Part shown: positions 7,552 to 23,064 of the stretch, in pieces
Layout: each line of letters begins with the position of its first letter
Numbering within the stretch: position 1 is the first letter of the stretch
DNA from: Myxococcota bacterium
GTDB taxonomy: Bacteria; Myxococcota_A; UBA796; CAJQPC01
Length of the DNA: 64,000 nucleotides
Direction of reading: 5' to 3'
NCBI GenBank assembly: GCA_036229005.1
Contig: JAZAMN010000003.1
Location: forward strand, 8,202 to 72,201
The notes under the pieces: generated by a model
The model's database searches: none
What the model was told of the DNA's origin: nothing
The model's input: only the letters and a program-made list of their open reading frames with translations
Translations under genes and position numbers: made by a program

Positions 7552-7580
7552 AGGGCGTGCCTCTGGGCGCGCCCTTTTTT
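7552..7580 (+). terminator. rho-independent terminator after flgL
   Basis: AGGGCG (7552-7557) pairs with CGCCCT (7570-7575), followed by a T6 tract (7575-7580), about 20 nt after the flgL stop. Confidence 0.6.
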
Positions 7581-8590: not shown

Positions 8591-8616
8591 GCCGACGGTT
8601 CCCGCTGACACACCAA

Positions 8617-8654
8617 GGAGCGTCCCCGCAAGGGGGCGCTCCTTTCTTGCGTTT
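8617..8654 (+). terminator. rho-independent terminator after flagellin 1
   Basis: GGAGCGTCCCC (8617-8627), loop GCAA, GGGGGCGCTCC (8632-8642), then TTTCTTGCGTTT. Confidence 0.65.
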
Positions 8655-8741
8655 GGGGGCGCATGCGGAGCGACCCCGACCGCGACCCTGTAGAACTGTA
8701 GGAGATGATGGGGGAGACGATCTTTTTTTGGCCCTGGGGGG

Positions 8742-8769
8742 TCATGCCTTTTTCCCGCGATTCCGATCG
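8742..8769 (+). promoter_or_regulatory. candidate sigma-28-type promoter upstream of flagellin 2
   Basis: TCAT-N16-TCCGATCG (the -10-like element is at 8762-8769). The CCGAT core matches the FliA -10 but the -35 is weak. A stem-loop begins about 9 nt downstream (8778). Confidence 0.35.
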
Positions 8770-8831
8770 CTGGGGGTGAGCCGGAGATGTTTTCGCGGAC
8801 ATCGGCTCGCAACCAACGAGGAGAACAGGCA

Positions 8832-9659
8832 ATGGCCTTGACCGTCAACACCAACGTCAGCGCGCTTCAGGCGGGAACCGCGCTCAACCGCAACACCCGG
8901 TCGCTGTCCAGCAGCTTCCGCAAGCTCTCCAGTGGGCTCCGCGTCAGCAAGGCTGCCGACGACGCTGCTGGTCTGGCTGTGGCCGAGAACCTGGAGGCTG
9001 CCAGCCGCTCCGCCGATGTCGCCAAGCGCAACACGAACGACGGCATCTCCTTGCTGGCCACCGCCGAGGGCGCAGCCAACGAGACGGGCTCCATCCTCAA
9101 GCGCATGCGCGAGCTGGCCGTCCAGTCCAGCTCCGAGACCCTCGATGACGACGAGCGCGCCTACATCCAGGACGAGTTCGAGGAGCTCACCGCCGAGGTG
9201 GATCGCATCGCCAACGTGACCGAGTTCAACGGCGTCGCCCTGGCGGACGGCACCAACACCCAGATCGACGTCCAGGTCGGCATCGACGGCTCCGCCGACA
9301 GCCGCATCACCATCAGCCTGGGCGACATGACCGCCTCCGCGCTGGGTGTGGACACCGGCTCGGTGGATCTCTCCACCGCCTCCAGCGCACAGACCGCCAT
9401 CGACACGATCGACACGGCCATCGACTCGGTCTCGGCCACCCGGTCCAAGTTCGGTGCCTCCGAGAACCGGCTCAACAGCGCCCTGAACAACCTGGAGACC
9501 TACTCCACCAACCTGCAGGCCGCTGAGTCCGCCATCCGCGACGCCGACTTCGCGTCGGAGACCGCTGAGATGACCAAGAACCAGATCATGCAGCAGGCGA
9601 GCGTCTCGGTGCTCGCCCAGGCCAAGGGAATGAGCTCCATGGCCGCTCAGCTCATCTGA
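8832..9659 (+). CDS. fliC: flagellin, copy 2 (tandem paralog)
   Basis: MALTVNTNVSALQAGTALNRNTRSLSSSFRKLSSGLRVSKAADDAAGLAVAENLEAASRSADVA... is highly similar to copy 1 across its length. GGAG RBS upstream of ATG 8832; the ORF-track start at 8787 is probably too early. Confidence 0.95.
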   Translation: MALTVNTNVSALQAGTALNRNTRSLSSSFRKLSSGLRVSKAADDAAGLAVAENLEAASRSADVAKRNTNDGISLLATAEGAANETGSILKRMRELAVQSSSETLDDDERAYIQDEFEELTAEVDRIANVTEFNGVALADGTNTQIDVQVGIDGSADSRITISLGDMTASALGVDTGSVDLSTASSAQTAIDTIDTAIDSVSATRSKFGASENRLNSALNNLETYSTNLQAAESAIRDADFASETAEMTKNQIMQQASVSVLAQAKGMSSMAAQLI

Positions 9660-9729
9660 GCCGAGCTGCTGAGCAGGGAAGGGCCCGGATCACCTCGCTG
9701 GTGGTTCGGGTCTTCTCCCGTCTCTGTGC

Positions 9730-9756
9730 TCAGTTCCCAGGGCGGTGATCCGATGT
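9730..9756 (+). promoter_or_regulatory. candidate sigma-28-type promoter upstream of fliD
   Basis: TCAG-N15-TCCGATGT (-10-like element at 9749-9756). It would exclude the 9755 ORF start and favours the RBS-led ATG at 9800. Confidence 0.35.
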
Positions 9757-9799
9757 GAATGAACAGGGAAGACTCTTCCCGTTCTCTGGAGTGAAGCAG

Positions 9800-11137
9800 A
9801 TGAGCAGCATCTCACTTGACGGCGTGGTCTCGGGGTTGGATACGACCTCCATGATCAACTCGTTGGTGGCTGTCTCTGCCACCCGTGGCCAACAGATGGT
9901 CTCCCAGAAGGACGACTTTCAGGACACCCTGGACGCCGTCGGGGACTTCAAGTCCGCCCTGGCCAAGGTGCAGACCTCCCTGGAGGAGCTGCAGGATCCC
10001 GACACTTTCGGTGAATACACGGTCTCCCAGAGCGCGGAGACAGGGTTCACCGCCAGCGTGGGCAACGACGCGACGCCAGGCGCCTACGACGTGCAGGTCA
10101 CACAGTTGGCCAAGGCCGAGATGGAGGTCTCGCAGGGCTTCGCGGACAAGTCCACGGCTGGGGTGCTGGCCACCGGCGTGATGGAGGTCACCTATGGGGG
10201 CAACGATCCCGTAGAGATCACCATCGACTCGGACACCACGCTCTCCTCGCTGGCAGAGGAGCTGGACGCGGTCGAGGGGATCTCGGCCTTCGTCCTGGAC
10301 ACGGGGGACGCCTCCACGCCGTACAAGCTCGTCGTCATGGGCGAGGACACCGGCGAGGACAACACGATCTCCTTCGACACCTCGGCGCTCTCGGGGGGCA
10401 CCGTCCCCGGGTTCACGGAGCAGGTCACGGCCCAGAACGCCAAGGTGACCGTCAACGACATCGAGGTCAGCCACGAGGACAACGTCATCGACGACGTGAT
10501 CCCGGGCCTGGATCTGGCGCTGACGCAGGAGACCACCGAGGCGGTCACCGTTACGGTCAACCGCGACGACGAAGCGATCATGGACAAGATCGAGGGCTTC
10601 GTCGACGCGTGGAACAGCCTGCGGGTGATGCACGGCGCGAACAGTGATTACGACGCCGACAATGACATCAAGGGTGCCCTCTTTGGAGAGGGGACCACCA
10701 AGGGGATCCTGAGCACGCTGGGCTCCATGATCTCCACGCCCTCGGGCGAGGCCACCAACGGCGAGGACATGAGCTTCGCGCTGCTGGGCATCAGCACACT
10801 GCAGACGGGCAACCTGGAGCTCGACCGCAGCGAGCTGCAGGACATGCTGGACGAGGACTACGACTACGTGGTCGAGGTCTTCTCCAGCGAGGACGGTCCC
10901 GCGGCGGCCCTGGTGGACATGATGGACGACACCTATCTGGGCAGCGATGGCTTCCTGGCCTCCAAGGAGGACTCCCTGGAGGACACCATCGAAGACCTGG
11001 AGAACAGCATCATCGACTTTGAGGACCGCCTGAGCGACTACGAGGAGCGACTGCGGAACCAGTTCACCTCGATGGAGGTCGCGCTCGGCGAGCTGCAGAG
11101 CACCCAGAGCTACCTGTCGGCGCTGATCGAAGCCTGA
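9800..11137 (+). CDS. fliD: flagellar filament cap protein FliD
   Basis: MSSISLDGVVSGLDTTSMINSLVAVS... N-terminus and C-terminus RLRNQFTSMEVALGELQSTQSYLSALI. GGAG lies 8 nt upstream of ATG 9800. Confidence 0.9.
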   Translation: MSSISLDGVVSGLDTTSMINSLVAVSATRGQQMVSQKDDFQDTLDAVGDFKSALAKVQTSLEELQDPDTFGEYTVSQSAETGFTASVGNDATPGAYDVQVTQLAKAEMEVSQGFADKSTAGVLATGVMEVTYGGNDPVEITIDSDTTLSSLAEELDAVEGISAFVLDTGDASTPYKLVVMGEDTGEDNTISFDTSALSGGTVPGFTEQVTAQNAKVTVNDIEVSHEDNVIDDVIPGLDLALTQETTEAVTVTVNRDDEAIMDKIEGFVDAWNSLRVMHGANSDYDADNDIKGALFGEGTTKGILSTLGSMISTPSGEATNGEDMSFALLGISTLQTGNLELDRSELQDMLDEDYDYVVEVFSSEDGPAAALVDMMDDTYLGSDGFLASKEDSLEDTIEDLENSIIDFEDRLSDYEERLRNQFTSMEVALGELQSTQSYLSALIEA

Positions 11138-11159
11138 CCCCTGAGACCGGAGCACGCAC

Positions 11160-11525
11160 GTGAGAGGACTGAACGCCTACCAGGCCGCCCGAGTGGAAAC
11201 CGCGAGCCCGTCGGCGGTGCTTGTGATGTTGATGCACACCGCTGTGCTCAAGCTGGAGTCGGCGCTCCAGCGGGACCCCAAGGATCTCCCCGGCTACCAG
11301 GCGGATCTGCACCACGTCCGCAGCATCTACTTCGAGCTGGTGATGGCCCTGGATGACGCTGCCGCCCCGGAGCTCTGCGCGGAGCTCCGGCGCCTCTACT
11401 CCTGGTGCATCCGGGAGCTGGTCGAGGCCTCCAAGAGCCGCAGCGACAGCCACGTCGAGGGCGTGCTGCGCGTGACCCGGACCCTGGGTGAGGCCTGGAC
11501 CGAGGCGGTCGAGGAGATCAGCTAG
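11160..11525 (+). CDS. fliS: flagellin-specific chaperone FliS
   Basis: 121 aa, GTG start. LNAYQAARVETASPSAVLVMLMHTAVLKLESA... fits the FliS four-helix pattern. Directly downstream of fliD. Confidence 0.85.
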   Translation: MRGLNAYQAARVETASPSAVLVMLMHTAVLKLESALQRDPKDLPGYQADLHHVRSIYFELVMALDDAAAPELCAELRRLYSWCIRELVEASKSRSDSHVEGVLRVTRTLGEAWTEAVEEIS

Positions 11526-11830
11526 TGTCCGCCTCTTCCCTGCGACAGGAGGTCTTGGCGCTGCGCCGCCTCCTTCAAGGGGGGGAGACCCCGGACCCTG
11601 AGCGGATCCGGGCGCTGACGCAGGCCATCCAGGCGGAGGCTCCGCAGATGTCCAAGCCGGATCTGCGCGCGCTGGCAGCGGCCTTCTCCGCGCTGATGGA
11701 GGAGGCCCAGGAGCAGCGTGAGTTCCTCCAGGAGCAGCTCAAGCAGGTGGGCACCGGGCGCAAGGTGGCCCGCGGATACGGCTGCCTGCGATCGGCGAGT
11801 CAGGGGCAGCGCGTGCGCGTGAAGGCTTAG
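11525..11830 (+). CDS. hypothetical helical protein in the FliT position
   Basis: 101 aa, TAGTG overlap with fliS. Predicted helical and Glu/Gln/Leu-rich (EEAQEQREFLQEQLKQ). No motif I can name; the call rests on position only. Confidence 0.35.
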   Translation: MSASSLRQEVLALRRLLQGGETPDPERIRALTQAIQAEAPQMSKPDLRALAAAFSALMEEAQEQREFLQEQLKQVGTGRKVARGYGCLRSASQGQRVRVKA

Positions 11831-11833
11831 GGC

Positions 11834-11860
11834 TCAAGTGTCGCGGCGGGTGTCCGATGG
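11834..11860 (+). promoter_or_regulatory. candidate sigma-28-type promoter for the accessory operon
   Basis: TCAA (11834-11837)-N15-TCCGATGG (11853-11860). The -10 octamer is the same as at flgI and flgB. Confidence 0.4.
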
Positions 11861-11866
11861 ACGGGC

Positions 11867-12397
11867 ATGCGCGACACCTCATACAGAATCCACGCAGAGC
11901 TCGATCTGGCTGTACGGCCGGGCGACGACTCCGTGGAGACCGTGATGGCTCCGCTGATGGCCCGCCAGCTCGCTGGTGAGGCGCGGGAGGCCGTGGAGCT
12001 GCTCTCCCCCCGCCGGGACAAGCGCGTCAAGGAGGCCCTCTCGCGGGTGCTCGACGCGGTCGAGGTCCTGGAGCGGGAGATGGAGTGGATCTGGCGCCGC
12101 CAGCTCAACGCCGAGCACGGGATGGTGCTGGAGCGGCGGCCGGTGGTGCTCACCCCCTTTGGGCTGGAGCTCTCGGGGAGCTGGCCGGAGGGCCCCGCCA
12201 CGCTGCAGCTCGGCGTGGTGCTGGGCCAGAGCTGGCGACTGCTGGGACTGCCGGTCCAGGTCAAGCCGCTCCCCGCGCATGGCCAACAGATGCTGGGCTT
12301 TGGCCGCCTGTCGGACCCGGATCGGGACCTGCTGGCCGCCCTGGCCCTGGACCTCCAGCGCAAGGAGCGTCGCCGTGAACGCAGTGCTGTGCCTTAG
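11867..12397 (+). CDS. hypothetical protein, possibly a degenerate PilZ-like beta-barrel
   Basis: Protein-like composition. WRRQLNAEHGMVLERRPVVLTPFGLELSG only loosely recalls PilZ RxxxR...D/NxSxxG. The start is uncertain: ATG 11945 has a GGAG RBS and fits the predicted transcription start better. Confidence 0.35.
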   Translation: MRDTSYRIHAELDLAVRPGDDSVETVMAPLMARQLAGEAREAVELLSPRRDKRVKEALSRVLDAVEVLEREMEWIWRRQLNAEHGMVLERRPVVLTPFGLELSGSWPEGPATLQLGVVLGQSWRLLGLPVQVKPLPAHGQQMLGFGRLSDPDRDLLAALALDLQRKERRRERSAVP

Positions 12398-13076
12398 CCT
12401 CCTCCTGTCGCAAGAACCCCAAGATGTGTCAGCGCCGAGCGCTGAGGTCGAGCAGGCTGGTGGCTTCTCGTCCGTGCTCGCCGAGACGGAGCAGACCCTC
12501 CAGCAGGAGGGCGTCAGCGTCGTGTTCCGCGGGGTGGGGGAGTCCTGGGACGATGAGACCCTGGAGCGCCTCTACCGCGGTGAGGTCTTCATGGGCTCCG
12601 TCGGCCTGGTCGTGCCGGTTCACCGCTACGCCGTGGTGGACATCGAAGCGGGCTTCAAGCGCCAGGGCGGGAGCGCCTGGAACACCGAGTCCGACACCCT
12701 GAGCAGCGAGGGCATCGCCTTCCAGCTCGTGCCGGTGAGCGCACTGGTCGAGGCCCGCTACCCCCTGTCCCGAGGCAGCCTCTTTGCGGGCGTCGGCCCC
12801 AGCATGGCGGTGTTCCAGGAGGAGTTCCCGGCCACGGAGAACGCCGAGGGCTTGACCAAGACCCAGGTCAGCGGGGCCAAGCTTGGCGCGGAGCTCCGCA
12901 TGGGCCTGCGCATGAGCACCGGCTTTCAGCCCCAGCGGCCGCTACCTCCCGCTCCCCAGCCGCTGATCCAGGGCATCTCCGTGGAGTTCTATGGCGGTCG
13001 GCGCATGCAGCGCGCGCCCTCGGGCTTCGATCTGGCCGCCTGGCGCCTGAGCGCGGGCGTCGCGGTGCAGTTCTGA
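12375..13076 (+). CDS. putative outer-membrane beta-barrel protein (flagellar-cluster associated)
   Basis: GTG start with AGGAG 7 nt upstream. Short signal VNAVLCLSLLLSQEP. Alternating amphipathic segments and a C-terminal FDLAAWRLSAGVAVQF ending in Phe, as in OMP beta-signals. Confidence 0.5.
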   Translation: MNAVLCLSLLLSQEPQDVSAPSAEVEQAGGFSSVLAETEQTLQQEGVSVVFRGVGESWDDETLERLYRGEVFMGSVGLVVPVHRYAVVDIEAGFKRQGGSAWNTESDTLSSEGIAFQLVPVSALVEARYPLSRGSLFAGVGPSMAVFQEEFPATENAEGLTKTQVSGAKLGAELRMGLRMSTGFQPQRPLPPAPQPLIQGISVEFYGGRRMQRAPSGFDLAAWRLSAGVAVQF

Positions 13077-15298
13077 TGGGCTGGTGGCTGCTGCTGGGCC
13101 TCGCCTACGGGCAGGAGCCGGCCGTCGGGGGCTTCGAGCTGCGAGCCGGTCCTCGGGCGCGGGTACAGACCCTTCCGATGGTGTCCGCCACCCGACAGCA
13201 GTGGGTGATCCACGAGAGCGCCTATGCGCTCAACGACCAGCTCTCCGACTCCCTCTTCATCCCGGGGGTCGAGGCCATCGACCTCTACGGCGTGGGTGGA
13301 GGGAGCTGGATGGTGACCCTGCAGCTCACGGAGCCAGGGCTGGTGGGCTCCTGGCGCGAGGAGGCCGGCGCCTGGGTGTTGGAGCTGCGGCCCGGGAACC
13401 CCGTGATCGTACAGACGCCCGACGCCCTGGATCTGCAGACCCTGCTCTCTGCGCCGCCCGAGCGCTCGATGCAGCGGGTCAGCAAGTCCTCGCTCCAGCC
13501 GCTCAGTGGTCTGGCGTCGACGCTGGCCCTGGAGCCCCAGGAGGTGGACCCGGCATTTCCGGTGTGGACCCCCAACCTCCCCGCCGAGGCCCGGGACAGC
13601 CTGCGCTACGACCCGACCCCGACGCCCTACACCATCGACCGCTACCGCGAGGCGCTGACACACCCCGACCCCTACGTGGAGGCCGCGGCCCGCTACCGCA
13701 TCGCCCAGGCCCACGAGCACCTGGGGCTCAACCGGGAGGCGGCCTACTACTACCGCAGCGTGATGGCGCTGGACGCCCCCTGGCCTCGGGACGTGCTGCC
13801 GCTGGCGCTCGCCCGGGCGGAGATCCGCAGCGGGGACATCGACGCAGCGCGCGAGGCCTGTGAGCAGGCTTGGGGGGTGTCCCGGGCGCGCTCCGAGCAG
13901 GTCGCCACGTGCCTTGGGTTGGTGTCCTTGGAGTCTGCCCAGCCAGCCCCCGCGGCCGTCGGTCGGGTGCTCGCGAACAGCTCCGGGCACCCCCTCCACC
14001 TGCTGCTCGCGGCTCAGCTCCTGCAGGCCGATGGCTACCACGCCGAGGCCCAGCCCCTGCTCGAGACCGCGCTCGCTGTGGTCGCCGAAGAGGACCCGCT
14101 GCGCCGACACATCCTGGCTTCGCTGGGCGACAGCTACCTGCACCAAGGCCGGCTGGGCGAGGCCAGCGATATGTGGCGCGCTGTGGGGCACGCGGGCGAG
14201 CTCGGGGATGTCGTCTGGCTGCGACAGCGCATGCTGGTCATGGTCGAGGCCGGCCCCGGCGAGTGGCCCATGCACCTGCCTGATCTGGACGCCTTCGTCG
14301 CGCGGGGAGGGGAGGGCTCCGCCGAGGCGCTCTACCTGGAGGCCCAGGTCGGCGAGACCCTGGGCGATGACGAAGCGGCCGCGGATGCGCTCATCCAGCT
14401 CGTGGATCACCATCGGCGGGTCGCGAGCGCCAACGCCGTGCCCACGCAGCTCTGGGGGGTGCTCGTGCGTCGCCTGGAGGCTCTGCATCGCCAGGGACGC
14501 ACCCTGGATCTCATCGCCGTGTATCGGCGCTACTACCGCAGCTCTCTGGAGGACGTGATCCTGGACCCCACCCCTCTTGGGCTGGTCGTCGAGGCCTATG
14601 ACGCCGCCGGGCTGCCCGAGCAGGCCATGCGCACCCAGCGCGATCTCTTCGCAATCCAGACCCGCCTGGGGCAGAGCGACCCCGCGTCCCTGCTGCGTCT
14701 GGCCCGGCTCTACGAGGAGGCCGACCGCCACGAAGACGCCCTGGCCACCCTGGACTTCCTGGCCGGTCAGGGCTCCCCCCGGGAGCTGGAGGGCGAGCGT
14801 CAGCTCCTGCTGGGGCGTGTGTTCATGTCCCTGGGGCAGGAAGAGGAGGGGCTGGCGGCCTGGGAGCGGGCTGAGCGCACCACCGAGCACCGCGTGGAGG
14901 CCCAACTTCTCACTGCACTGCACGTCGCCAACGAGGACTGTCTGGGCGCGACCGAGGCTCTGGAGGCCATCGTCGCTCTGCGACCGGAGCCTGGCCTGCA
15001 GCCTCTGCGCACCGGTGAGGCCCACCTGGTGCTGGCGCGCTGTCAGCTCGAGCTGGGGGAGGCCGCCAAGGCGGCCAAGAGCGCCGAGGAGGCCGCGGGC
15101 CGCAGCCCCGACCCCCACACCCAGCGCTACGCCAACTTCCTGGCCGCCCAGGCCGCCCGCAGCGAGGGCCAGGAGCCCGGCATGCTGGCCAAGGCCCTGG
15201 AGAGCGAAGAGGACCTCTGGTCGGAGGTCTACAAGGGCCTCTCCGAGGACGACGCGTTTCGAGCGGAGCTGGCGGCGCGGCGGCGAGGGGTTGAGTAG
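13076..15298 (+). CDS. periplasmic TPR-repeat protein with an N-terminal beta-rich domain
   Basis: 740 aa, TGATG overlap with the upstream gene. Signal-like MGWWLLLGLAYGQEP. The beta-rich first ~110 aa are followed by many Ala/Leu/Tyr helical-pair repeats (YVEAAARYRIAQAHEHLGLNREAAYYYRSV...). Confidence 0.75.
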   Translation: MGWWLLLGLAYGQEPAVGGFELRAGPRARVQTLPMVSATRQQWVIHESAYALNDQLSDSLFIPGVEAIDLYGVGGGSWMVTLQLTEPGLVGSWREEAGAWVLELRPGNPVIVQTPDALDLQTLLSAPPERSMQRVSKSSLQPLSGLASTLALEPQEVDPAFPVWTPNLPAEARDSLRYDPTPTPYTIDRYREALTHPDPYVEAAARYRIAQAHEHLGLNREAAYYYRSVMALDAPWPRDVLPLALARAEIRSGDIDAAREACEQAWGVSRARSEQVATCLGLVSLESAQPAPAAVGRVLANSSGHPLHLLLAAQLLQADGYHAEAQPLLETALAVVAEEDPLRRHILASLGDSYLHQGRLGEASDMWRAVGHAGELGDVVWLRQRMLVMVEAGPGEWPMHLPDLDAFVARGGEGSAEALYLEAQVGETLGDDEAAADALIQLVDHHRRVASANAVPTQLWGVLVRRLEALHRQGRTLDLIAVYRRYYRSSLEDVILDPTPLGLVVEAYDAAGLPEQAMRTQRDLFAIQTRLGQSDPASLLRLARLYEEADRHEDALATLDFLAGQGSPRELEGERQLLLGRVFMSLGQEEEGLAAWERAERTTEHRVEAQLLTALHVANEDCLGATEALEAIVALRPEPGLQPLRTGEAHLVLARCQLELGEAAKAAKSAEEAAGRSPDPHTQRYANFLAAQAARSEGQEPGMLAKALESEEDLWSEVYKGLSEDDAFRAELAARRRGVE

Positions 15299-15340
15299 CG
15301 ACTCAGGCAGTCAGGTACGAGGTATCAGGGTTGGGGGCAG

Positions 15341-15375
15341 CGACCGGCGACCGGCGACCGGCGACCGGGGACCGG
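15341..15375. repeat. heptamer tandem repeat (CGACCGG)x4 + GGACCGG
   Basis: Read directly: cgaccgg cgaccgg cgaccgg cgaccgg ggaccgg. Confidence 0.95.
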
Positions 15376-15495
15376 CGATGACGGTGGTGCAGGGGAGGAG
15401 CGCCTTGGCAGCCTGCGGGGTAGGCGGGGTGGGGTTCAGGTATCAGAGATCAGGTGTCAGAGTGGGGACGGCGACGGGAAGGGCGCTGCGCGAAG

Positions 15496-15523
15496 CCCGA
15501 TACCCGATACCCGATACCCGATA
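15496..15523. repeat. heptamer tandem repeat (CCCGATA)x4
   Basis: Read directly: cccgata cccgata cccgata cccgata. Each unit contains CCGATA, the core of the FliA -10 consensus. Confidence 0.95.
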
Positions 15524-15658
15524 CCTGAATCCTGCCTCCTCGCAGGGCCGGCCCTCCGGCGCAGCCTGCTGTGGCCCGCACGGAGTGCCAGGCCCTCCCC
15601 CCGACGTCCCCAGCGTCGGCTGCCACCCCCGCTCCGAGCCCCCCAGCCCGTCATCGGC

Positions 15659-15679
15659 GGTCCCCGGTCCCCGGTCCCC
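15659..15679. repeat. heptamer tandem repeat (GGTCCCC)x3, inverted counterpart of 15341-15375
   Basis: Read directly. The reverse complement is GGGGACC, matching the GGACCGG variant unit of the left array. Confidence 0.9.
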
Positions 15680-15763
15680 TGTCGCCGCGCCCCGGCACCC
15701 TCCCGACACCTGACCTCCGATACCTGACACCTGATACCCCCGATCAAAATCTCGACTTTCCGC

Positions 15764-15790
15764 TAAACACTCCCGGTCTCCGTCCGATGG
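15764..15790 (+). promoter_or_regulatory. candidate sigma-28-type promoter upstream of flgB
   Basis: TAAA (15764-15767)-N15-TCCGATGG (15783-15790). The 15-mer CTCCGTCCGATGGCG is shared with the flgI upstream region. GGAGA RBS precedes ATG 15815. Confidence 0.45.
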
Positions 15791-15814
15791 CGCCTACGAA
15801 GCCCAGGAGACCTC

Positions 15815-16213
15815 ATGTCCAACAACATGCTCTTCGACAGCCTCCACGGCGGCCTGTCCCGGGCCATCGAGCTGAGGCTCCAGAAGCACGAGATCACCGC
15901 ATCCAACCTCGCCAACATCGACACCCCCAACTTCCAGGGCACCACCCTGGACTTCGACGCCGCCCTCCGGGATGCCGTCGGGACCGCAGGTCAGCGGGGT
16001 GGGGGGATGGCGGCGGTGGAGGGGGATGCCAGCGCCAGCGGCGAGCTCATCCAGCAGGACCCTCTGTCCTGGGCCGGTGACAACTCCAGCGTGTATCTGG
16101 AGCGCGAGAACGCCGCGATGCTCTCCAACTCCCTGCAGCTCAACGCCCTGACCGACGGAATGAGCCGTCGCCTGGCCATGCTGCGCTTTGCCGCCACCAA
16201 CGGCGGCGGTTGA
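15815..16213 (+). CDS. flgB: flagellar proximal rod protein FlgB
   Basis: 132 aa. LSRAIELRLQKHEITASNLANIDTPNFQ is the FlgB N-terminal signature. Confidence 0.9.
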   Translation: MSNNMLFDSLHGGLSRAIELRLQKHEITASNLANIDTPNFQGTTLDFDAALRDAVGTAGQRGGGMAAVEGDASASGELIQQDPLSWAGDNSSVYLERENAAMLSNSLQLNALTDGMSRRLAMLRFAATNGGG

Positions 16214-16224
16214 AGGAGGAGCCC

Positions 16225-16644
16225 GTGAGTCTCTTTGATACACTCGGTGTCGCATCTACCGGCCTGTCGGCCCAGCGCGTGCGCCTGCAGGCGGTCTCCA
16301 GCAACATCGCCAACGCAGAGTCCGTGGACGCCCAGGGCAATCCGTATCAGCGCAAGGTGGTGCGCCTGCGCTCCCAGGCCAGCGACCCCTTCGGGGACGC
16401 CCTGAGCCAGGCCATCCAGTCCGTCGAGATCGACGGCATCGAGGAGCGGGAGGGCTTTGTCGAGCGCCTTGACCCCGACCACGAGTTCGCGGACGAGCGC
16501 GGCATGGTCCGCATGCCGGACATCGACCCGATGACCGAGATGGTGGACATGATGTCCGCCTCCCGGAGCTACGAGGCCAACGCCACCGTGGTCGACGCCA
16601 CGCGGGAGCTCGCCAACCGCGGGATCTCCCTGGGACGTAGCTGA
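16225..16644 (+). CDS. flgC: flagellar proximal rod protein FlgC
   Basis: SLFDTLGVASTGLSAQRVRLQAVSSNIANAESVDAQGNPYQRKVV and C-terminus MTEMVDMMSASRSYEANATVVDATRELANRGISLG. GAAGGAGG precedes GTG 16225; the ORF-track start at 16210 overlaps the flgB stop. Confidence 0.9.
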   Translation: MSLFDTLGVASTGLSAQRVRLQAVSSNIANAESVDAQGNPYQRKVVRLRSQASDPFGDALSQAIQSVEIDGIEEREGFVERLDPDHEFADERGMVRMPDIDPMTEMVDMMSASRSYEANATVVDATRELANRGISLGRS

Positions 16645-16952
16645 TGTCCATCTCCGCCATCTCCGCGGGCTTCCCCCAGATCTCCCAGGTCCCTGGGGCC
16701 CAGGCGCCGGCAAAGAACACCGCCGTCCAGGGCGCCAGCGACTTCGAGAACTCGCTGCAGTCCATGTTGGAGCAGGTGGACGGGGCCCAGCACCAGGGCG
16801 ACGTGGCCCTCCAGGATCTGGCCGCCGGCGACGCGGGGATCCACGAGACCATGATCGCCTTGACTCAAGCCGACATCACCTTGCAGGCTGCGTCGACGGC
16901 GCGAAACAAGGTGGTGTCCGCCTACGAGACCATCATGAATATGGCCATCTGA
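16644..16952 (+). CDS. fliE: flagellar hook-basal body protein FliE
   Basis: 102 aa, TGATG overlap with flgC. C-terminus IHETMIALTQADITLQAASTARNKVVSAYETIMNMAI is the FliE pattern. Confidence 0.85.
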   Translation: MSISAISAGFPQISQVPGAQAPAKNTAVQGASDFENSLQSMLEQVDGAQHQGDVALQDLAAGDAGIHETMIALTQADITLQAASTARNKVVSAYETIMNMAI

Positions 16953-17100
16953 GGCCTCGACGGTGGACTCTCGCGCTGAAGGGGTGCGGGAGGCCAGCCA
17001 TCCCAGGAGGTGGGGGACAGGGTCTTTACCGCCAAGGACCTTCGCAACCCCCCAGGCTTGGTGCACTCTACCTGCAGATCAATTGCAACTCAGAGGCCCG

Positions 17101-18225
17101 ATGACCCTCCTGCTCCTCTCCTTTATCGCCTGTACCGAAGAGACCCCCGACCAGACCGCGGGGCTCGCTGTCTTGGGCACCGCCGATGCGGACGCGCCCG
17201 AGAGCGTTCAGATGCGGGTCATCCTTACCGCCGATGACGGCCTGGACGTCCCCCGGGACCTGGAGTTCAACCCCGAGGTCGCCGGCGAGCTGTGGGTGGT
17301 GAACTTCGCCGATGACAGCGTGACCGTCGCGAACGACGCGGGCACCGACAGCCAGGTCTCCGAGCACCTGATCGACCCCTACGCCCTGCACTTCATGGAG
17401 AAGGTCAGCTCCATCTCCTTCGGCGCGCCGGGGACCTTCGGCACCTGCCAGGAGAGCCGGAACACCTACAACGACCGCTACGAGCCCAACGACTTCATGG
17501 GCCCGGCTCTGTGGTCCAGCGACCGCGCGGTGTTCGCCGAGTCCAACCCCGAGGCGGTGGACTACCTCAGCGAGCTCTACAACAGCCCCGTCGACCTGGG
17601 CAGCCACCTGGACATGCAGCACGAGACCCCGCTGTGCACCGGCATCGCCTGGGAGACGGACAACGTCTACTGGACCGTGGACGGCCTGAACGGCTCCATC
17701 GACCGCGTGGACTTCGGCGAGGACCACGGGCCCGGCTACGACGACCACTCCGACGGCATCACCGCGGAGTACGTGGCCGGTGAGATCGGCTACGTCGAGG
17801 ACGTCTCCTCCCACATGGTCCTGGACAGCGAGTCTGGCTGGCTCTACCTGACCGACCCCGCCAACCAGCGCATCCTGCGCCTGGACATCACCACCGGCAC
17901 CCGCGGGGCCGACCTGCCCATCATGGAGCCCGGAACCGACCACTACCAGGTCGACGACGCGGTCCTGGAGGTCTTCGTGGACAGCGACCGCGGCCTGGGG
18001 CAGCCCTCGGGTCTGGCGCTCGTGGACGGCGTGCTCTTTGTCACCGACCACGCCACGGGCTGGATCTTCGCCTACGAGACGGAGACCGGCGACTTCCTGG
18101 ACGGGCTGGACACCGGGCGTGGCAGCGGCGCGATCCAGGGCCTGCGCGCCCCCACCATCGACGAGCTGTGGGTCGTGGACTCCGCCGCCAACGAGGTCTT
18201 CCTCATCACCCCCAAGGAGGGCTGA
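17101..18225 (+). CDS. hypothetical lipoprotein, possibly beta-propeller-like
   Basis: MTLLLLSFIAC lipobox with Cys at residue 11. Asp/Gly-rich protein with repeated W-x-V/L-x-D segments (ELWVVNFADDSV, WLYLTDPANQRIL, VLFVTDHATGWIF, ELWVVDSAANEVF). Confidence 0.55.
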   Translation: MTLLLLSFIACTEETPDQTAGLAVLGTADADAPESVQMRVILTADDGLDVPRDLEFNPEVAGELWVVNFADDSVTVANDAGTDSQVSEHLIDPYALHFMEKVSSISFGAPGTFGTCQESRNTYNDRYEPNDFMGPALWSSDRAVFAESNPEAVDYLSELYNSPVDLGSHLDMQHETPLCTGIAWETDNVYWTVDGLNGSIDRVDFGEDHGPGYDDHSDGITAEYVAGEIGYVEDVSSHMVLDSESGWLYLTDPANQRILRLDITTGTRGADLPIMEPGTDHYQVDDAVLEVFVDSDRGLGQPSGLALVDGVLFVTDHATGWIFAYETETGDFLDGLDTGRGSGAIQGLRAPTIDELWVVDSAANEVFLITPKEG

Positions 18226-18632
18226 TGCTCCTGCTCATGGCCCTGCTGGGCTGCGAAGACGACATGGAGATGGCGTCCTCCCCTTGCGACGAGGAGGCCC
18301 GCGCGGGCGCTCTGGAGGTCGGCGATAGCTTCTCGGGCGACGCGGTGACCCTCACGCTGCTCAGCGCCGATCCCGCCGTGGTGTCGGTGGGGGAGAATCG
18401 CTGGGAGCTGGAGCTGGACCCCGCTCAGAGTGAGGACTGCACCGTCCAGGTCACCCCGTGGATGCCGGACCATGGTCACGGATCCTCCGTCGGCGAGGTC
18501 ACCTTCAGCCCGACCTCGCTGGAGGTCGAGGATCTGGAGCTGTCCATGGGCGGCTACTGGGAGATCGAGGTGAGCCTGCAGTGCGCGGACACCGAGGATC
18601 TGGTCCTCATCCCCCTCTGCGTCGACGCCTGA
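18225..18632 (+). CDS. hypothetical small lipoprotein (His-rich PWMPDHGHG motif)
   Basis: TGATG overlap with the upstream gene; AGGAGG 5 nt upstream. MLLLMALLGC lipobox. Beta-rich 135-aa protein with a possible metal-binding motif. Confidence 0.5.
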   Translation: MLLLMALLGCEDDMEMASSPCDEEARAGALEVGDSFSGDAVTLTLLSADPAVVSVGENRWELELDPAQSEDCTVQVTPWMPDHGHGSSVGEVTFSPTSLEVEDLELSMGGYWEIEVSLQCADTEDLVLIPLCVDA

Positions 18633-18647
18633 GCGCCGCCGGGGCCG

Positions 18648-19922
18648 CTACTCCGACAGCGCCCCCACGCAGGCATCGCCGCTCTCCCAGGTGAGGGCGG
18701 TGCTGGCCAGCTCGAAGGTGGGGACCTCGGCGCGCAGGCTGGGGTCCAGGCGCCCGGCCTCGATGTGGTGGTCCAGCAGGTCCAGCCCCAGGGGGCGCAG
18801 CAGCACGCGCATCTGCACGCGGTCCGGGTCCACGCCGGGCATCTCCAGGGTCCAGGTGCGGCTGTGGGGGCCCAGGGGGAGGGGAGCGACGGGCAGCGCG
18901 CGCTCTTCCAGGAAGGCAGCGTCGGAGATCCCGTGGGCCGGCTCGCCGTCCGCGGTGGTGGCGAGGTCGTGGAGCTCGATGCGCTGGGCCTCCGGGAGCG
19001 CGCTCAGGGCGACGCCGTCGGGCACCACGCCGCTCTCGAACACGACGCTGTCTCCGGAGTACGCGACCAGCTCGACCCACACGCGGCGGTCGTGGCTGGC
19101 GCCGCTGGGGAAGTCGTGGCCGGCCAGCAGGTTCTCCAGGCTCACCCGCGCCTGGCTGCCCCCCGCGGCGGGGCTCACGCAGAGCTCGGCGGCCAGGGTC
19201 TTGTCGAGCTGGGCCTGGATGGCCTCCCGCTGCACGTCGCGGCCGGGCCAGTCGATCAAGGCCACGTCGATCGCCGGCATGCTGTGGTCGTGGACGCGGC
19301 GCTCGGGGGCCCCGTCGACCTCCGCCACGAGGCCGCTGCGCGAGGGCAGGTGGCAGTGGACGCAGCCCTGGCGGGAGCGACCCTCGGCGAAGATGCTGCC
19401 CTGCCACTCCAGGTAGCTGCGCTCCAGGTGCAGGCCGTCGGGGAGCATGACGTCGTGGCAGCTCCCGCACATGGCGCTGCTCTCGTCGGCGTTCCGGTCC
19501 AGCAGGGCGCTGTAGCGGCTGCGGTGCACGCTGGAGTCCAGGGGGTCCTCCAGGGCGCCGCGCATCCAGCCGTCAAAGGACCAGGTGAGCGCGGCGTTGT
19601 TGTCTCCGGTGACGGCCTCGATCTGGTGGCAGAACGCGCAGCCCACGCCGCGGTGCTCGGCGGGGACCTCGTCCAGGTTCAGGCCGTCCTGGGTCTCTCC
19701 CAGGGCCAGGGCCACCGGCGCGTGACACTGCACGCAGAAATCCTCGGGGACCTCGCCAGAGGCGACCGCGCGGGCGTTCAGGGCCCGGAACACGGGGTCG
19801 TCGGCGGCGTGGGCGTGCATGCTTCCTTCCCACTCGCTGTGGTGGGCGGGGTGGCACTCGGCGCAGGTCTGCGGGTCCAGCAGCGCGGTGTCTGGCTGGG
19901 TGTCGCAGGCCAGCAGGAGCAT
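18648..19922 (-). CDS. multihaem c-type cytochrome lipoprotein (five CxxCH motifs)
   Basis: MLLLAC lipobox. Haem-binding motifs CAECH, CVQCH, CAFCH, CGSCH and CVHCH. The rest of the 986-aa ORF-track entry (18648..21608) is a read-through artefact. Confidence 0.75.
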   Translation of the reverse strand: MLLLACDTQPDTALLDPQTCAECHPAHHSEWEGSMHAHAADDPVFRALNARAVASGEVPEDFCVQCHAPVALALGETQDGLNLDEVPAEHRGVGCAFCHQIEAVTGDNNAALTWSFDGWMRGALEDPLDSSVHRSRYSALLDRNADESSAMCGSCHDVMLPDGLHLERSYLEWQGSIFAEGRSRQGCVHCHLPSRSGLVAEVDGAPERRVHDHSMPAIDVALIDWPGRDVQREAIQAQLDKTLAAELCVSPAAGGSQARVSLENLLAGHDFPSGASHDRRVWVELVAYSGDSVVFESGVVPDGVALSALPEAQRIELHDLATTADGEPAHGISDAAFLEERALPVAPLPLGPHSRTWTLEMPGVDPDRVQMRVLLRPLGLDLLDHHIEAGRLDPSLRAEVPTFELASTALTWESGDACVGALSE

Positions 19923-21151
19923 CAGCACGGGGCGCCCCTCCGGCGCATCAGCAGCAGCAGGAAGGGGAGGGGACCGAGCCACCAGAGCTCGCTTGGCCCA
20001 CCGCCACAGCCCCCGCAGCCCTCGGGCCCCTCTGCACCCGTGTCCACCGGCGAGGCACTGTCGCCCGTGTCCGGAGCCAGGGGCTGGGGCAGGTTGACCA
20101 GCTCCCAGAGCGGCTCGCAGATCACGGCCTGGTCGCTGTCGGCGGGGCAGCTCAGGGGGGCCTGAATCTCGTAGGGCTCCAGCAGGACGCCCAGCTCGGC
20201 GCCGGGGGTGTAGCTGTGGAGCAGCGCGCCGTTGATCAGCGCGGAGCCGGCCAGGGTGAGCTGCGCGTCGTCGGTGGGGGCGGCCAGGGCCAGGCTGGCG
20301 GGGGCGTCCTCCAGCTCGGTGAAGGCCTCGCCGTCCAGGCGGTAGAGCGCGCCGAAGGCCTCCTGGGCCCAGACCTGGCCCTGCGCGTCCACGTAGACGT
20401 CCGCGAGGGTGCCGCCGACCGTCAGCAGGGGCGTGGCGTTGCCCTCCAGATCGCTGCGCAGGAGCACGTGCCCTCCGGGGGCGGAGACCGCGACCCAGAC
20501 CTGTTCGCCGTCCACGGCCAGGACCTTCGCGACCAGAGGGTCCTCTTCCGCCCACTCGGACAGGTCCAGGGTGACCTCGTTCCAGCTCAGGCCTTGATCC
20601 TGGCTGGTGTGCAGGCGGGCATCCTCGGGGGTGAGGAGATCGATGCTGACGCAGGCCAGGGTCTGCTCGTCCCCGACGACCCGGAGGGCGGTGCGGCCCA
20701 CGCCCAGCTCGGCGACTTGCGAGAAGCTCAAGGCCCCGTCGCTGCTGCGGAAGAGCGCGGCGGATTCGTCCTGGGACTCCGGGGCGGTCACGGCCAGGGC
20801 GATCGTGTCGTCGACCCACAGGCTGTCGCTGACGATCTGCCCATCCAGGCCGCTGACGGCGGTCCAGGTGCAGAGATCGGCGCTGCGGTAGAGGGTGTGC
20901 TGAGCGCTGCGGGCCTGGGCGCTGGCGGGGACGGCCCCCAGGACCACGCCGCTGGGGCTGCTGGAATAGCGGGGGGTCAACAGGGCATCTGAGGTCGTGA
21001 TGGCCTCGTGGCAGACCCAGCGCCAGCCGGCCTCTGCGCGGTGGACCAGGCCGAAGCTGGCCTCGACGGTGTCGGGGTTGTCGACGTCGATGGCGTTGAT
21101 CTCGCCGCCGGCGTGGGGCCAGGCCAGGGAGCTGAGCAGTGCAGGGAGCAT
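19922..21151 (-). CDS. secreted BNR/Asp-box beta-propeller-like protein with a MYXO-CTERM-type sorting tail
   Basis: Signal MLPALLSSLAWPHAGG. Asp-box-like SSDGALSFSQV and SQDQGLSWNEV. C-terminus GCGGCGGGPSELWWLGPLPFLLLLMRRRGAPC has a Cys motif, a TM segment and an Arg cluster. TGATG overlap with the cytochrome gene. Confidence 0.7.
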   Translation of the reverse strand: MLPALLSSLAWPHAGGEINAIDVDNPDTVEASFGLVHRAEAGWRWVCHEAITTSDALLTPRYSSSPSGVVLGAVPASAQARSAQHTLYRSADLCTWTAVSGLDGQIVSDSLWVDDTIALAVTAPESQDESAALFRSSDGALSFSQVAELGVGRTALRVVGDEQTLACVSIDLLTPEDARLHTSQDQGLSWNEVTLDLSEWAEEDPLVAKVLAVDGEQVWVAVSAPGGHVLLRSDLEGNATPLLTVGGTLADVYVDAQGQVWAQEAFGALYRLDGEAFTELEDAPASLALAAPTDDAQLTLAGSALINGALLHSYTPGAELGVLLEPYEIQAPLSCPADSDQAVICEPLWELVNLPQPLAPDTGDSASPVDTGAEGPEGCGGCGGGPSELWWLGPLPFLLLLMRRRGAPC

Positions 21152-21252
21152 GAGACCGTATAGCCGCAGCGTGGAGGGTGGGTGCCATTGTGGCGTCAGG
21201 GATGGCGCGCAGCAGCCCAAGCCCATAGGGGCGCCGCTTGCCAGGACCCCCC

Positions 21253-23064
21253 ATGCCCGAAAGCACCGACAACGCCCCCGAGACCGAAGAGCGCCTCGCC
21301 TTTGAGGCCCTGGGGCTCGCCCCCTCGCTCCAGGAGGCCGTCGCGCACCTGGGGTTCACCCACTGCACTCCCATCCAGGCCGCCGGCATCCCGCCGCTGC
21401 TGGAGGGCCGCAGCACCATCGGTCGGGCCCGCACCGGCTCCGGCAAGACCGCCGCTTTCGGCCTGCCGCTGCTCAACCTGGCGCTGCTGGATGAGGGGGA
21501 CCGCCGTGGCCGCCCGCCCGTGGGCCTGGTGCTCGCCCCCACGCGCGAGCTGGCGCTGCAGGTGCACACCGCTCTGGAGTCCTTCGCCCGGGGCTCCGAC
21601 CTGCGCATCCTGGCCGTCTACGGCGGCTCGGCGTACAGCCCGCAGCTCCGCGCGCTCAAGCGGGGGGTGGAGATCGTGGTCGGCACGCCCGGCCGCCTGC
21701 TGGACCTGATGGAGAAGGGGGCCCTGGACCTGTCCGAGCTGCAGATGCTGGTGCTGGACGAGGCCGACGAGATGCTGCGCATGGGCTTCATCGAGGACGT
21801 GGAGCAGGTGTTCGAGGCCGCGCCCGATGGCGTCCAGGCCGCCCTTTTCTCCGCGACCATGCCCGGCCCCATCGCGCGCATCGCCAAGGCCCACATGCAG
21901 GAGCCCCTGGTGGTGCAGGTGGAGTCCGGTGACGTGGAGGCCGGCCACATCCGCCAGCTCTGGATGAAGGTGCCCCAGAAGCACAAGCTGGAGGCCCTGC
22001 TGCGCTTCTTCCGCAGCGAGGAGATGCAGAGCGTGCTGGTGTTCGCCCGCACGCGCCTGGGCTGCGCCGAGGTCGCCCAGGCCCTGGCCCAGCGCGGCTT
22101 CTCCGCCGAGGAGCTGCACGGTGACCTGAGCCAGGCCGCCCGTGAGCGGGTGCTCGAGCGCCTGCGGAACCAGCACGTGCGGGTGGTGGTCGCCACCGAC
22201 GTGGCCGCGCGCGGCATCGACGTGGCGCACATCTCCCACGTCATCAACCTGGACCTGCCCATGGAGCGGGCCAGCTACGTGCACCGCATCGGGCGCACGG
22301 GCCGCGCGGGCCGCGAGGGCACCGCCATGAGCCTGGTCACCCCGCGGGAGATCCGGCGCCTGCGGGACATCGAGCGCCACCTGGGCGTCGAGATCGAGCA
22401 GGTGGAGGTCCCCTCCGACGCGCAGATCCAGCAGCGCCAGCACGCCATCCTGCAGGCCCTGCTCAGCGAGCGCATCGCCCAGCCCAACCCCGACGCCTTC
22501 GCCATGCTGGAGACCCTGGAGGAGCAGGGGATGCACGCCAAGGCCGTCGCGGCCGCTGCGCTGGACTGGCTGGCGGAGAAGCAAGGCCTGGAGCTGGCGG
22601 GCACCGGCGAGGACCTGCCCCCTGCCTGGGCCCGGGAGAAGCGGCGCAGCAAGCCCACCCGCGAGGCCCGCGTGGCCGGCGGGAAGGGCCCCAGCGGCGA
22701 CTCCGTGGAGCTCTTCCTGCCCGTGGGGCGTGACCGGGGCATCCAGCCCGGCGACCTGGTGGGCGCCCTGGCCAACGAGTGCGGCGTGCCCGGTGACCAG
22801 ATCGGCCGAATCACCGTGGTCCAGCGCAAGAGCTTCGTCTCGCTGCCCCGGGAGATCGCGGAGGAGGTCCTCGCACAGAACCACCGCATCGTGCTCCGCG
22901 GCCGCCCGGTCCCGGTGCACATGGCGCGGCCCCGCGGCGAGGGTGCCCCCTTCCGGCCCAAGGGCAAGGAGGGCGGCTACCAAGGCAAGCCCGGCAAGGG
23001 CTTCCGCAAGGGTGGCCCTGGCAAGGGCAAGGGTGGCTTCAAGGCACCTCGCAAGCGGGGGTAG
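21253..23064 (+). CDS. deaD: DEAD-box ATP-dependent RNA helicase (DeaD/CsdA-like) with DbpA-type C-terminal domain and basic Gly/Lys tail
   Basis: Q-motif/Walker A GFTHCTPIQ...ARTGSGKT, then VLDEADEML, SAT, ARGIDV and HRIGRTGRAG. The tail is KGKEGGYQGKPGKGFRKGGPGKGKGGFKAPRKRG. Confidence 0.9.
   Translation: MPESTDNAPETEERLAFEALGLAPSLQEAVAHLGFTHCTPIQAAGIPPLLEGRSTIGRARTGSGKTAAFGLPLLNLALLDEGDRRGRPPVGLVLAPTRELALQVHTALESFARGSDLRILAVYGGSAYSPQLRALKRGVEIVVGTPGRLLDLMEKGALDLSELQMLVLDEADEMLRMGFIEDVEQVFEAAPDGVQAALFSATMPGPIARIAKAHMQEPLVVQVESGDVEAGHIRQLWMKVPQKHKLEALLRFFRSEEMQSVLVFARTRLGCAEVAQALAQRGFSAEELHGDLSQAARERVLERLRNQHVRVVVATDVAARGIDVAHISHVINLDLPMERASYVHRIGRTGRAGREGTAMSLVTPREIRRLRDIERHLGVEIEQVEVPSDAQIQQRQHAILQALLSERIAQPNPDAFAMLETLEEQGMHAKAVAAAALDWLAEKQGLELAGTGEDLPPAWAREKRRSKPTREARVAGGKGPSGDSVELFLPVGRDRGIQPGDLVGALANECGVPGDQIGRITVVQRKSFVSLPREIAEEVLAQNHRIVLRGRPVPVHMARPRGEGAPFRPKGKEGGYQGKPGKGFRKGGPGKGKGGFKAPRKRG

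Follow-up and report, generated by a model that had tools for sequence, protein, structure and literature searches.

Among bacterial simple sequence repeats (SSRs), the STRR heptamers of cyanobacteria are comparable to the repeat block described here, which occupies the spacer between a TPR protein gene and flgB in the flagellar gene cluster of a Myxococcota bacterium (GenBank assembly GCA_036229005.1, contig JAZAMN010000003.1, positions 8,202 to 72,201 of the forward strand). This stretch of 64,000 nt is called the window, and all coordinates refer to it. The closest described class is that of the G-rich GGGNATC heptamers of Xanthomonas and Nostoc, with ~185 repeats per genome that are ~90% intergenic and lie mostly between co-directional genes; ~70 convergent inverted pairs are present per Xanthomonas genome (Rehm et al. 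2015, PMC4692102). The class is defined by head-to-tail heptamers with at least two units (≥14 bp) of GGGNATC or of heterogeneous GGGANTN. These repeats vary extensively in length between close relatives and show no link to insertion sequence (IS) elements, transposons, or mobile elements. They are mostly transcribed, transcripts start and end at them above controls, and they form G-quadruplexes (G4) in vitro. The linked genes are spread over functional classes, phase variation was judged unlikely, and the function was left unresolved (PMC4692102).

In Geobacter metallireducens, GGGACCG ×4 occurs at 49 sites, and MTYCTGA ×5 sites are drawn as strand-switching pairs (Aklujkar et al. 2009, PMC2700814). 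Direct repeats of TAACTGA, together with mixed heptamer arrays, are described from Beggiatoaceae, Cyanobacteria, and Bacteroidetes (MacGregor 2015, PMC4679880). These arrays make spacers longer, do not occur in close relatives, and exhibit indels in 7-nt steps, and contigs end inside them. Mrazek (2007), as cited in PMC4679880, names heptamers as the most abundant class of long SSRs, with polymerase slippage as the proposed cause. The (ATCTTTC)n repeats of hmw1A/hmw2A in Haemophilus influenzae form a hairpin in the 5′ untranslated region that is cleaved by RNase III (Rapun-Araiz et al. 2025, PMC12721329). In the clt locus of the Streptomyces plasmid pWTY27, four TGACACC repeats are bound by TraA (PMC3583192).

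The TPR–flgB spacer is probably an unusually large composite of convergent G-rich heptanucleotide SSRs that is specific to this lineage and has a passive transcript-boundary effect, as opposed to a dedicated regulator of flgB. Judged by its sequence, it appears to be a very large composite case of the described slippage-prone heptanucleotide repeat class, in a lineage from which this class had not been described before. A dedicated role in flgB regulation is very unlikely since the σ28-type promoter and the ribosome-binding region lie downstream of the repeats and are untouched by them.

Architecture of the TPR–flgB spacer

The spacer measures 516 nt, with the TPR stop codon TAG at 15296-15298 and the flgB ATG at 15815. 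It is the longest of the flagellar cluster, as an earlier interpretation made by a model from the letters alone (the sequence-only reading) had noticed; the remaining spacers measure 140-240 nt. The repeat block (15303-15745) is 7-periodic over its entire length. Its self-identity amounts to 0.50 at lags 7 and 14, 0.44 for lag 21, and 0.40 for lag 28, compared with ~0.3 at other lags and with a background of 0.27 for lag 7, and no other site in the 64 kb reaches 0.5 at lag 7 or 14 when scanned in segments of 80 nt. This period of 7 nt is the unifying property of the whole spacer and was overlooked in the sequence-only reading. A C-rich stretch of ~40 nt in the 3′ end of the TPR gene (15091-15132) barely reaches the threshold of 7-periodicity, in the conspecific contigs as well, probably by chance.

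Along the block, the GC skew changes from +0.35 on the G-rich left to −0.4 on the C-rich right, with the switch at ~15485. The arms are nested: an outer (15303-15402) and an inner (15436-15462) G-rich arm are followed by an inner (15496-15528) and an outer (15630-15745) C-rich arm, the latter two being separated by a C-rich segment of ~100 nt with small hairpins. The G-rich arrays on the coding strand begin 4 nt past the TPR stop codon, and the right-hand arrays end 70 nt before the flgB ATG. The block consists of the following features:

15303-15339, plus strand: outer left G-rich terminus of degenerate TCAGGTR-type units (TCAGGCA, TCAGGTA, CGAGGTA, TCAGGGT), then a G-run; read from the sequence, pairs with 15719-15734.
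15340-15378, plus strand: (GCGACCG)5.6 array, final unit GGGACCG; TRF score 71, 93% matches, 83% complementary to 15658-15695.
15379-15435, plus strand: G-rich connector with a weak 7-nt period and several GGGG tracts; 15375-15402 pairs with 15630-15657.
15436-15462, plus strand: inner G-rich arm TCAGGTA-TCAGAGA-TCAGGTG-TCAGAG, that is, (TCAGGTATCAGAGA)1.9; TRF period 14, 92%.
15496-15528, minus strand: inner C-rich arm (CCCGATA)4.3 (15496-15525), then CCTGA; TRF 100% matches, the minus strand reading (GGGTATC)n.
15529-15629, no strand assigned: C-rich, mostly nonrepetitive segment with local hairpins (sequence and fold), including CCGACG-N7-CGTCGG at 15601-15619.
15630-15695, minus strand: inner part of the outer C-rich arm, a complement of 15375-15402 followed by (CGGTCCC)5.4 at 15658-15695, the reverse complement of (GGGACCG)n; TRF and inverted repeats.
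15696-15745, minus strand: outer C-rich terminus CCGACAC-CTGACCT-CCGATAC-CTGACAC-CTGATAC-CCCCGAT, the reverse complement of TCAGGTR/TCGGGTR units; includes TRF (GACACCT)4.9 at 15705-15738.

The head-to-tail heptamers of the block make up five TRF arrays of period 7 or 14. Among these are the three heptamer microsatellites that had been recognized before, here delimited as (GCGACCG)5.6, (CCCGATA)4.3, and (CGGTCCC)5.4. The unit sequence drifts freely along the block (TCAGAGA, CGAGGTA, CCCGATA); TCAGGTA is one base off TCGGGTA, which is a rotation of GGGTATC. Exact tandem GGGACCG occurs three times on the minus strand (15658-15680), and the plus strand carries (GCGACCG)4-GGGACCG. A regular-expression search for the strict G4 motif (G3+N1-7)4 finds only one in the region, at 15496-15519 on the minus strand.

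The imperfect inverted arms, the central re-duplication of the left arm, and the small hairpin at 15601-15619 are all present as earlier described. The outer arms (15328-15402 and 15630-15704) are complementary to 72% over 75 nt and to 79% over 57 nt, and the termini (15311-15326 and 15719-15734) to 81%. Within the outer arms, GGACCGGCGATGACGG at 15369-15384 agrees with the reverse complement of 15648-15663 in 15 of 16 positions. The inner G-rich arm pairs with 15506-15532 (78%, 47-nt loop) and also with 15692-15739. Direct duplications connect 15311-15329 with 15436-15454 (79%) and 15279-15295 with 15423-15439 (82%). The 9-mer TCAGGTRTC, previously counted at about seven copies, is indeed clustered here: all six exact copies of the window lie inside the block, compared with 0.56 expected per 64 kb, and none of 100 shuffles reaches six. 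Herein, three minus-strand copies fall within 15696-15745 and one at 15520-15528, and the copy claimed at 15311 is degenerate (TCAGGTACG).

Folded as RNA, the plus strand of the block reaches −273 kcal/mol (z −7.9) and the minus strand a z of −7.0; folded as DNA, the z is −6.4. Either strand yields a giant imperfect nested hairpin, and no shuffle is as stable. That both strands fold equally well points to a symmetry of the DNA. The view of the region as potentially cruciform or structured is borne out as folding potential.

The open reading frames (ORFs) inside the block, two on the minus strand (95 and 96 aa) and one on the plus strand, exhibit a flat GC of 0.70-0.74 over the three codon positions, compared with 0.79/0.48/0.89 for the TPR gene, and have no Pfam match. 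Hence, the block is regarded as noncoding, and a protein-coding reading of these ORFs was dropped. A scan of the entire window against Rfam at gathering thresholds gave no match, and a scan of 15000-16000 for terminators and σ70 promoters gave none either. The strongest other tandem repeats of the window, at 30225-30287 (18-nt unit ×3.6, score 91) and 61367-61432 (33-nt unit ×2, score 76), have periods that are multiples of three and are probably coding sequence.

Occurrence in relatives, strains, and other phyla

Only five other homologues of the TPR protein were found among 5.8 billion proteins. Three of these (60-65% identity) lie in the same gene order, and the TPR–flgB spacer measures exactly 79 nt in all three. 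These spacers contain TCTAAACATGTCTGTAG(T/C/A)GGGTCCGATGGCGGGGACATAGACCCGGAGAAAGA(C/T)ATG, that is, only the conserved promoter and no repeats, and no 7-periodic segment occurs in the relatives' 32 kb of sequence. The block of ~445 bp was gained in this lineage after the split from the relatives with the 79-nt spacer. The conservation upstream of flgB that the sequence-only reading had proposed to check is, in these three relatives, not observed.

Among conspecific strains, the block is hypervariable. Identical FlgB and TPR proteins are encoded on contigs from the ZHAN22-1 metagenomes SAMN19492043 and SAMN19492042 and from the Logan assembly of SRR18682979, and three alleles with ~99% identical flanks are distinguished. 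Compared with scaffold_4 of ENA ZHAN22-1_SAMN19492043 (allele 2), the flanks of the window are identical to 99.2% (12 kb) and 98.6% (10 kb), whereas the spacers of 516 and 411 nt are 105 nt apart. The left end of allele 2 reads (TCAGGTG)3-TCAGGTA-TCAGGTG, where the window has TCAGGCA-G-TCAGGTA-CGAGGTA, so that five TCAGGTR units stand against 2-3. Allele 2 lacks the (GCGACCG)n array as well as 15377-15490, and mixed CCGATAC/CTGACCT/CTGATAC units replace (CCCGATA)4. It differs from the window in 15529-15553 and is ~98% identical to it from 15554 onward; its right arm (head of contig L002, reaching 15760) equals window 15650-15760 at 100%, and it still folds strongly (z −6.3). Of allele 3 (SAMN19492042), two contig ends each carry one part. 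The right part contains (CCCGATA)7 instead of 4, which is exactly 21 nt more, and the left part has a different start and ~2-3 GCGACCG-type units compared with 5.6. The segment 15554-15629 is common to the three alleles at ~97%, with single-nucleotide polymorphisms (SNPs) in the small hairpin confined to its loop, and the flgB promoter and leader are intact in every allele, with 2-3 SNPs only.

Three assemblies agree on the right half of the block. Four contigs from two other samples terminate inside it, and such breaks are typical of variable or self-complementary repeats. Allele differences in 7-nt steps are what slippage would produce. Of the slippage-prone phase-variation tract that had been suggested, the slippage stands, given that near-identical strains differ by whole heptamers (four versus seven CCCGATA, 2-3 versus five TCAGGTR) and by larger rearrangements. 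Phase variation does not, as the repeats lie upstream of an intact −35 element. The contig ends of allele 3 (L004 12272-12310 and L129 1-53) carry lower-GC sequence unrelated to the other alleles, which may be an IS insertion or an assembly artefact; blast against the window, conspecific, and survey sequences gave no match, and an IS insertion is unproven. At least three strains of this species co-occur in the sampled habitat. An exact scan of Joint Genome Institute (JGI) metagenomes for more alleles with the right flank ATCAAAATCTCGACTTTCCGCTAAACA gave no match.

Arrays of the same heptamer family recur far beyond this lineage. A scan for (TCRGGTR)3TC over 185,579 species genomes matched at least 120 stretches of genome sequence from no fewer than 10 phyla, where ~1 is expected by chance; the matches listed include Acidobacteriota, Gemmatimonadota, Planctomycetota, Verrucomicrobiota, Bacteroidota, Chloroflexota, Desulfobacterota, Cyanobacteria, Actinomycetota, Chlamydiota, and others. 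Many of the surveyed 8-kb loci contain several further 7-periodic stretches of other units, and other genomes build the same architecture from many different heptamers. The commonest related units, GGTGTCA and GGTATCA, have GG runs only. At 433 nt, the composite of the window exceeds in length every one of the 523 composite loci in the survey (median 80 nt, maximum 416 nt). The Streptomyces matches (survey loci L026, L067, L077, and L084) may be clt-like loci; L067 contains a 170-nt GTCGGGT/GTCCGGC array.

The order of the arms follows a polarity rule, with the G-rich array first. For the 101 arrays with full flanks among the matches listed, a complementary partner within 300 nt lies downstream of the G-rich array in 36 cases and upstream in three; in an independent metagenome sample of (GGTGTCA)3 (n = 92), these numbers are 57 and one. 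Adjacent, oppositely skewed 7-periodic segments are ordered G-then-C versus C-then-G at 24:0 in genomes, again among the matches listed, and at 43:2 in metagenomes, which gives 67 of 69 pairs pooled. On viral contigs, three pairs are convergent and none is divergent; convergent (GGTGTCA)2...(TGACACC)2 is found on the IMG/VR viral contigs L130 (4100-4158), L131 (6937-6995), and L132 (11566-11620). Most convergent pairs are found between co-directional genes, with the G arm next to the end of the upstream gene and the C arm ~57 nt before the next gene. This gene context follows from a crude longest-ORF rule, with approximate numbers that merely support what PMC4692102 reports.

The flgB promoter and the possible role of the block

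The promoter of flgB lies outside the repeats, and similar sites precede two further flagellar genes:

15763-15790, plus strand: CTAAAC-N14-GTCCGATGG, σ28-like flgB promoter, 18 nt past the last heptamer and 25 nt before the flgB ATG.
2807-2831, 7643-7669, and 15763-15787, plus strand: CTAAA-N13-17-TCCGA sites upstream of flgI, a flagellin gene, and flgB, respectively.

The consensus of FliA (σ28) is TAAA-N15-GCCGATAA. Window 15762-15792 (GCTAAACACTCCCGGTCTCCGTCCGATGGCG) matches the spacer motif of the relatives and is parsed as CTAAA-N15-TCCGATGG, a σ28-like motif that resembles this consensus. The three CTAAA-N13-17-TCCGA sites of the window, all on the plus strand, compare with 0.04 expected. 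The flgB promoter is downstream of the block and, since it is present in the repeat-free spacers of the relatives, is older than it. Usually, flgB is an early flagellar gene; here, it appears to be FliA-dependent, with the promoter motif kept in the relatives. The CCGATA-containing heptamers were also considered as repeated σ28 −10 decoys, a likeness dismissed as coincidence: no TAAA stands at the right spacing, and such arrays also occur in unrelated contexts.

For the block itself, the following course of events is proposed. Units of 7 nt would be gained and lost by replication slippage. The nested inverted structure and the large differences among alleles would go back to template switching or recombination in which the complementary arms take part. 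Because no terminator precedes the block, read-through from the upstream fliD-fliS-TPR genes would transcribe it as a 3′ extension of the upstream operon. The transcript would fold into a long imperfect hairpin, possibly competing with a G4 on the opposite strand. This hairpin may mark a transcript boundary, as a barrier for polymerase or exonuclease or as a substrate of RNase III, and would thereby separate the upstream operon from the promoter-driven flgBC-fliE operon. By analogy with hmw1A of H. influenzae, a hairpin of heptamer SSRs can be a target of RNase III (PMC12721329).

Several points weigh against this account. Both the transcription of the block and its boundary function are what we infer, and the relatives manage without the block, which speaks against any essential role. 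The hairpin is not a canonical intrinsic terminator: no U-tract follows, and the sequence past the stem reads CCCCCGATCAAAATC. The same holds for the class, as only 9 of 90 surveyed convergent pairs have at least four T in the 8 nt past the stem (81 have no U-tract); bidirectional intrinsic terminators were rejected as a class property on these grounds. The window contains one locus in 64 kb, or 0.8 periodic segments per 10 kb compared with 4.6-6.8 in the surveyed loci, which were themselves chosen for having arrays, so that the property of a dispersed family is not shown for this genome. Compared with the GGGNATC class, a single array has the GGGNATC unit and there is one strict G4; the other units are GGTRTCA and GCGACCG/GGGACCG, most of them without a G3 tract. 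Lastly, metagenome assembly of repeats may err in detail, and allele 3 is incomplete.

A switch of phase or a rheostat, in which heptamer number alters the output of the flgB operon as (ATCTTTC)n does for hmw1A, would draw on the different heptamer numbers of near-identical strains, on a long repeat hairpin adjoining the operon of a surface organelle, and on the precedent of heptamer SSR, hairpin, and RNase III (PMC12721329). It is nevertheless unlikely, as the last heptamer ends at ~15745 and the −35-like CTAAA starts at 15763, leaving no repeats between promoter and start codon, and all alleles share promoter and leader but for 2-3 SNPs. Moreover, FlgB is an internal rod protein and not an antigenic surface protein, and phase switching was judged unlikely for the Xanthomonas and Nostoc repeats (PMC4692102). 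Slightly less credit is given to a G4 or i-motif element, with G-tracts of each strand's 5′ arm forming G4 DNA or RNA that modulates local transcription or replication. In its favor, (GGGTATC)4-7 on the minus strand conforms to a canonical G4 motif, and GGGNATC forms G4 in vitro with transcript starts and stops above controls (PMC4692102). Against it, the 450 bp contain a single strict G4 motif, the related units that are most common (GGTGTCA, GGTATCA) have GG runs only, and the complementary arm favors duplex or hairpin. A conserved structured noncoding RNA, such as a riboswitch-like leader or a small RNA, is the least probable explanation of all and would be most surprising: the predicted fold is very stable, but no Rfam family matches at gathering thresholds, both strands fold equally well, and the block is absent from the three relatives and rearranged among strains.

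That the block is a nonautonomous element resembling a miniature inverted-repeat transposable element (MITE), with terminal inverted repeats built from TCAGGTR and inserted between the TPR gene and flgB, is improbable. Its inverted termini (15311-15326 and 15719-15734), its absence from relatives, and the occurrence of the same heptamers in many phyla and on some viral contigs would fit. However, blastn against the window and conspecific contigs found no other copy of the nonrepeat parts, and the matches in survey loci are heptamer arrays only. The sole flanking direct repeat is the 4-nt CGAC, at chance level and no convincing target-site duplication; the termini are tandem arrays that vary in copy number among strains; other genomes build the same architecture from many heptamers; and no link to IS elements or transposons was found by Rehm et al. 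(PMC4692102). The decayed MITE of the sequence-only reading is not supported, nor are its structured RNA and its regulator-binding array. A protein-binding array for TCAGGTR/TGACACC heptamers, for instance for a regulator or an FtsK/TraB-type translocase, has six exact TCAGGTRTC sites confined to the block and the experimental precedent of direct repeats bound by TraA (PMC3583192) in its favor. It is highly improbable all the same, as no tra or rep genes are nearby, the neighbors being flagellar, the array is not conserved in the 79-nt spacers of the three relatives, and the unit sequence drifts freely.

A wider idea is speculative and rather doubtful, namely that convergent G-rich heptamer pairs are one ancient cross-phylum element type of fixed polarity, with the G-rich array first on either strand and starting at the upstream stop codon. 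Among the matches listed, TCRGGTR units recur from Myxococcota to Bacteroidota, Acidobacteriota, Planctomycetota, Streptomyces, and some phages. Since the polarity does not change when the other strand is read, slippage by itself does not account for it. Such an order would follow if the G-rich strand were laid down by 3′-end extension at breaks or stalled forks, or if the pairs were selected as transcript-end or RNase III processing signals independent of U-tracts. If this were true, the block upstream of flgB would be the largest known example of an unrecognized general mechanism.

The cluster around the block is ordered on the plus strand as flgI, flgM, flgK/L, two flagellins, fliD, fliS, three unknown genes, the 740-aa TPR gene, and flgB-flgC-fliE. 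A full flagellar gene set (window 1-17000) is present in a genome of ~70% GC; to our knowledge, flagella are not expected in classical myxobacteria. The DeaD helicase at ~21253-23064 has its best named homologues in Polyangiaceae, Sandaracinaceae, and Myxococcota metagenome-assembled genomes (MAGs), with 52-55% identity, from which the host is taken to be an uncultured, Myxococcota-like bacterium. In the relatives, fliE is directly followed by fliF-fliG-fliH-fliI (relative contig L007, 4406-8970), whereas in the window (16963-21200) it is followed by two unknown genes and two opposite-strand genes, one of them a multihaem cytochrome (Cytochrome_C554/MtrC-like matches). Synteny with the relatives hence breaks directly after the flgBC-fliE operon.

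Comparison with described repeat classes

Rather than a new system, the block represents an extreme case within a repeat class already described. The sequence-only reading had held that nothing in the gene annotation explains the region; it fits the convergent G-rich heptamer class of PMC4692102. A text search of the literature for literal strings such as GGTGTCAGGTGTCA found no paper. Like the GGGNATC repeats, the block consists of tandem heptamers, is intergenic between co-directional genes, varies in length among close relatives, and forms a convergent pair that is G-rich on the plus strand and then on the minus strand. At 15496-15525, the minus strand reads (GGGTATC)n and is thus literal GGGNATC. 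In contrast, the block is nested and measures 433 nt instead of the typical four units, its host is a Myxococcota-like MAG, and one locus is seen in 64 kb compared with ~185 per Xanthomonas genome.

The GGGACCG unit of G. metallireducens is identical at window 15368-15374 and, as reverse complement, at 15658-15680, and MTYCTGA is the reverse complement of TCAGRAK, which is near TCAGAGA and TCAGGTA of the window. However, the Geobacter elements are short, dispersed, of four or five units, and proposed to be regulatory, whereas the window fuses both unit types in one large locus. With the TAACTGA arrays, the block shares the lengthening of the spacer, the shorter and repeat-free spacers of relatives, the 7-nt indels, and the contig breaks, and a single base change turns TAACTGA into TACCTGA, which is the unit of the right arm on the sense strand. 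The unit sequences are otherwise not those of the window, and the 'Maribeggiatoa' sets sit on the ribosome-binding region with a proposed translational role, whereas the window arrays end 70 nt before the start codon, upstream of the promoter.

As in hmw1A, a heptamer SSR with a complementary arm yields a long RNA hairpin, and the repeat number varies among strains. There, the SSR is transcribed downstream of the promoters and tunes expression; here, the promoter comes after the repeats, which are unlikely to affect flgB. REP/REPIN, ERIC-type palindromes, and MITEs are likewise intergenic, hairpin-forming, and lineage-specific, with possible roles at mRNA 3′ ends. They are, however, fixed-sequence multicopy units mobilized by RAYT or other transposases, whereas the block consists of variable tandem heptamers with no second copy in 64 kb.

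At this locus, the comparison removes a tempting, unsupported story of a special regulator or RNA before flgB, whose real promoter is placed downstream of the repeats; the block marks a site of metagenome assembly breaks and distinguishes strains. Beyond it, the pattern known from Xanthomonas and Nostoc is extended by one heptamer family that recurs in at least 10 phyla, in near-absolute order of G first and C second and against stop codons. Polarity and cross-phylum recurrence together offer a testable handle on the function and origin of bacterial heptamer repeats: why the period is seven, why the G-rich arm comes first, and why the same units return.

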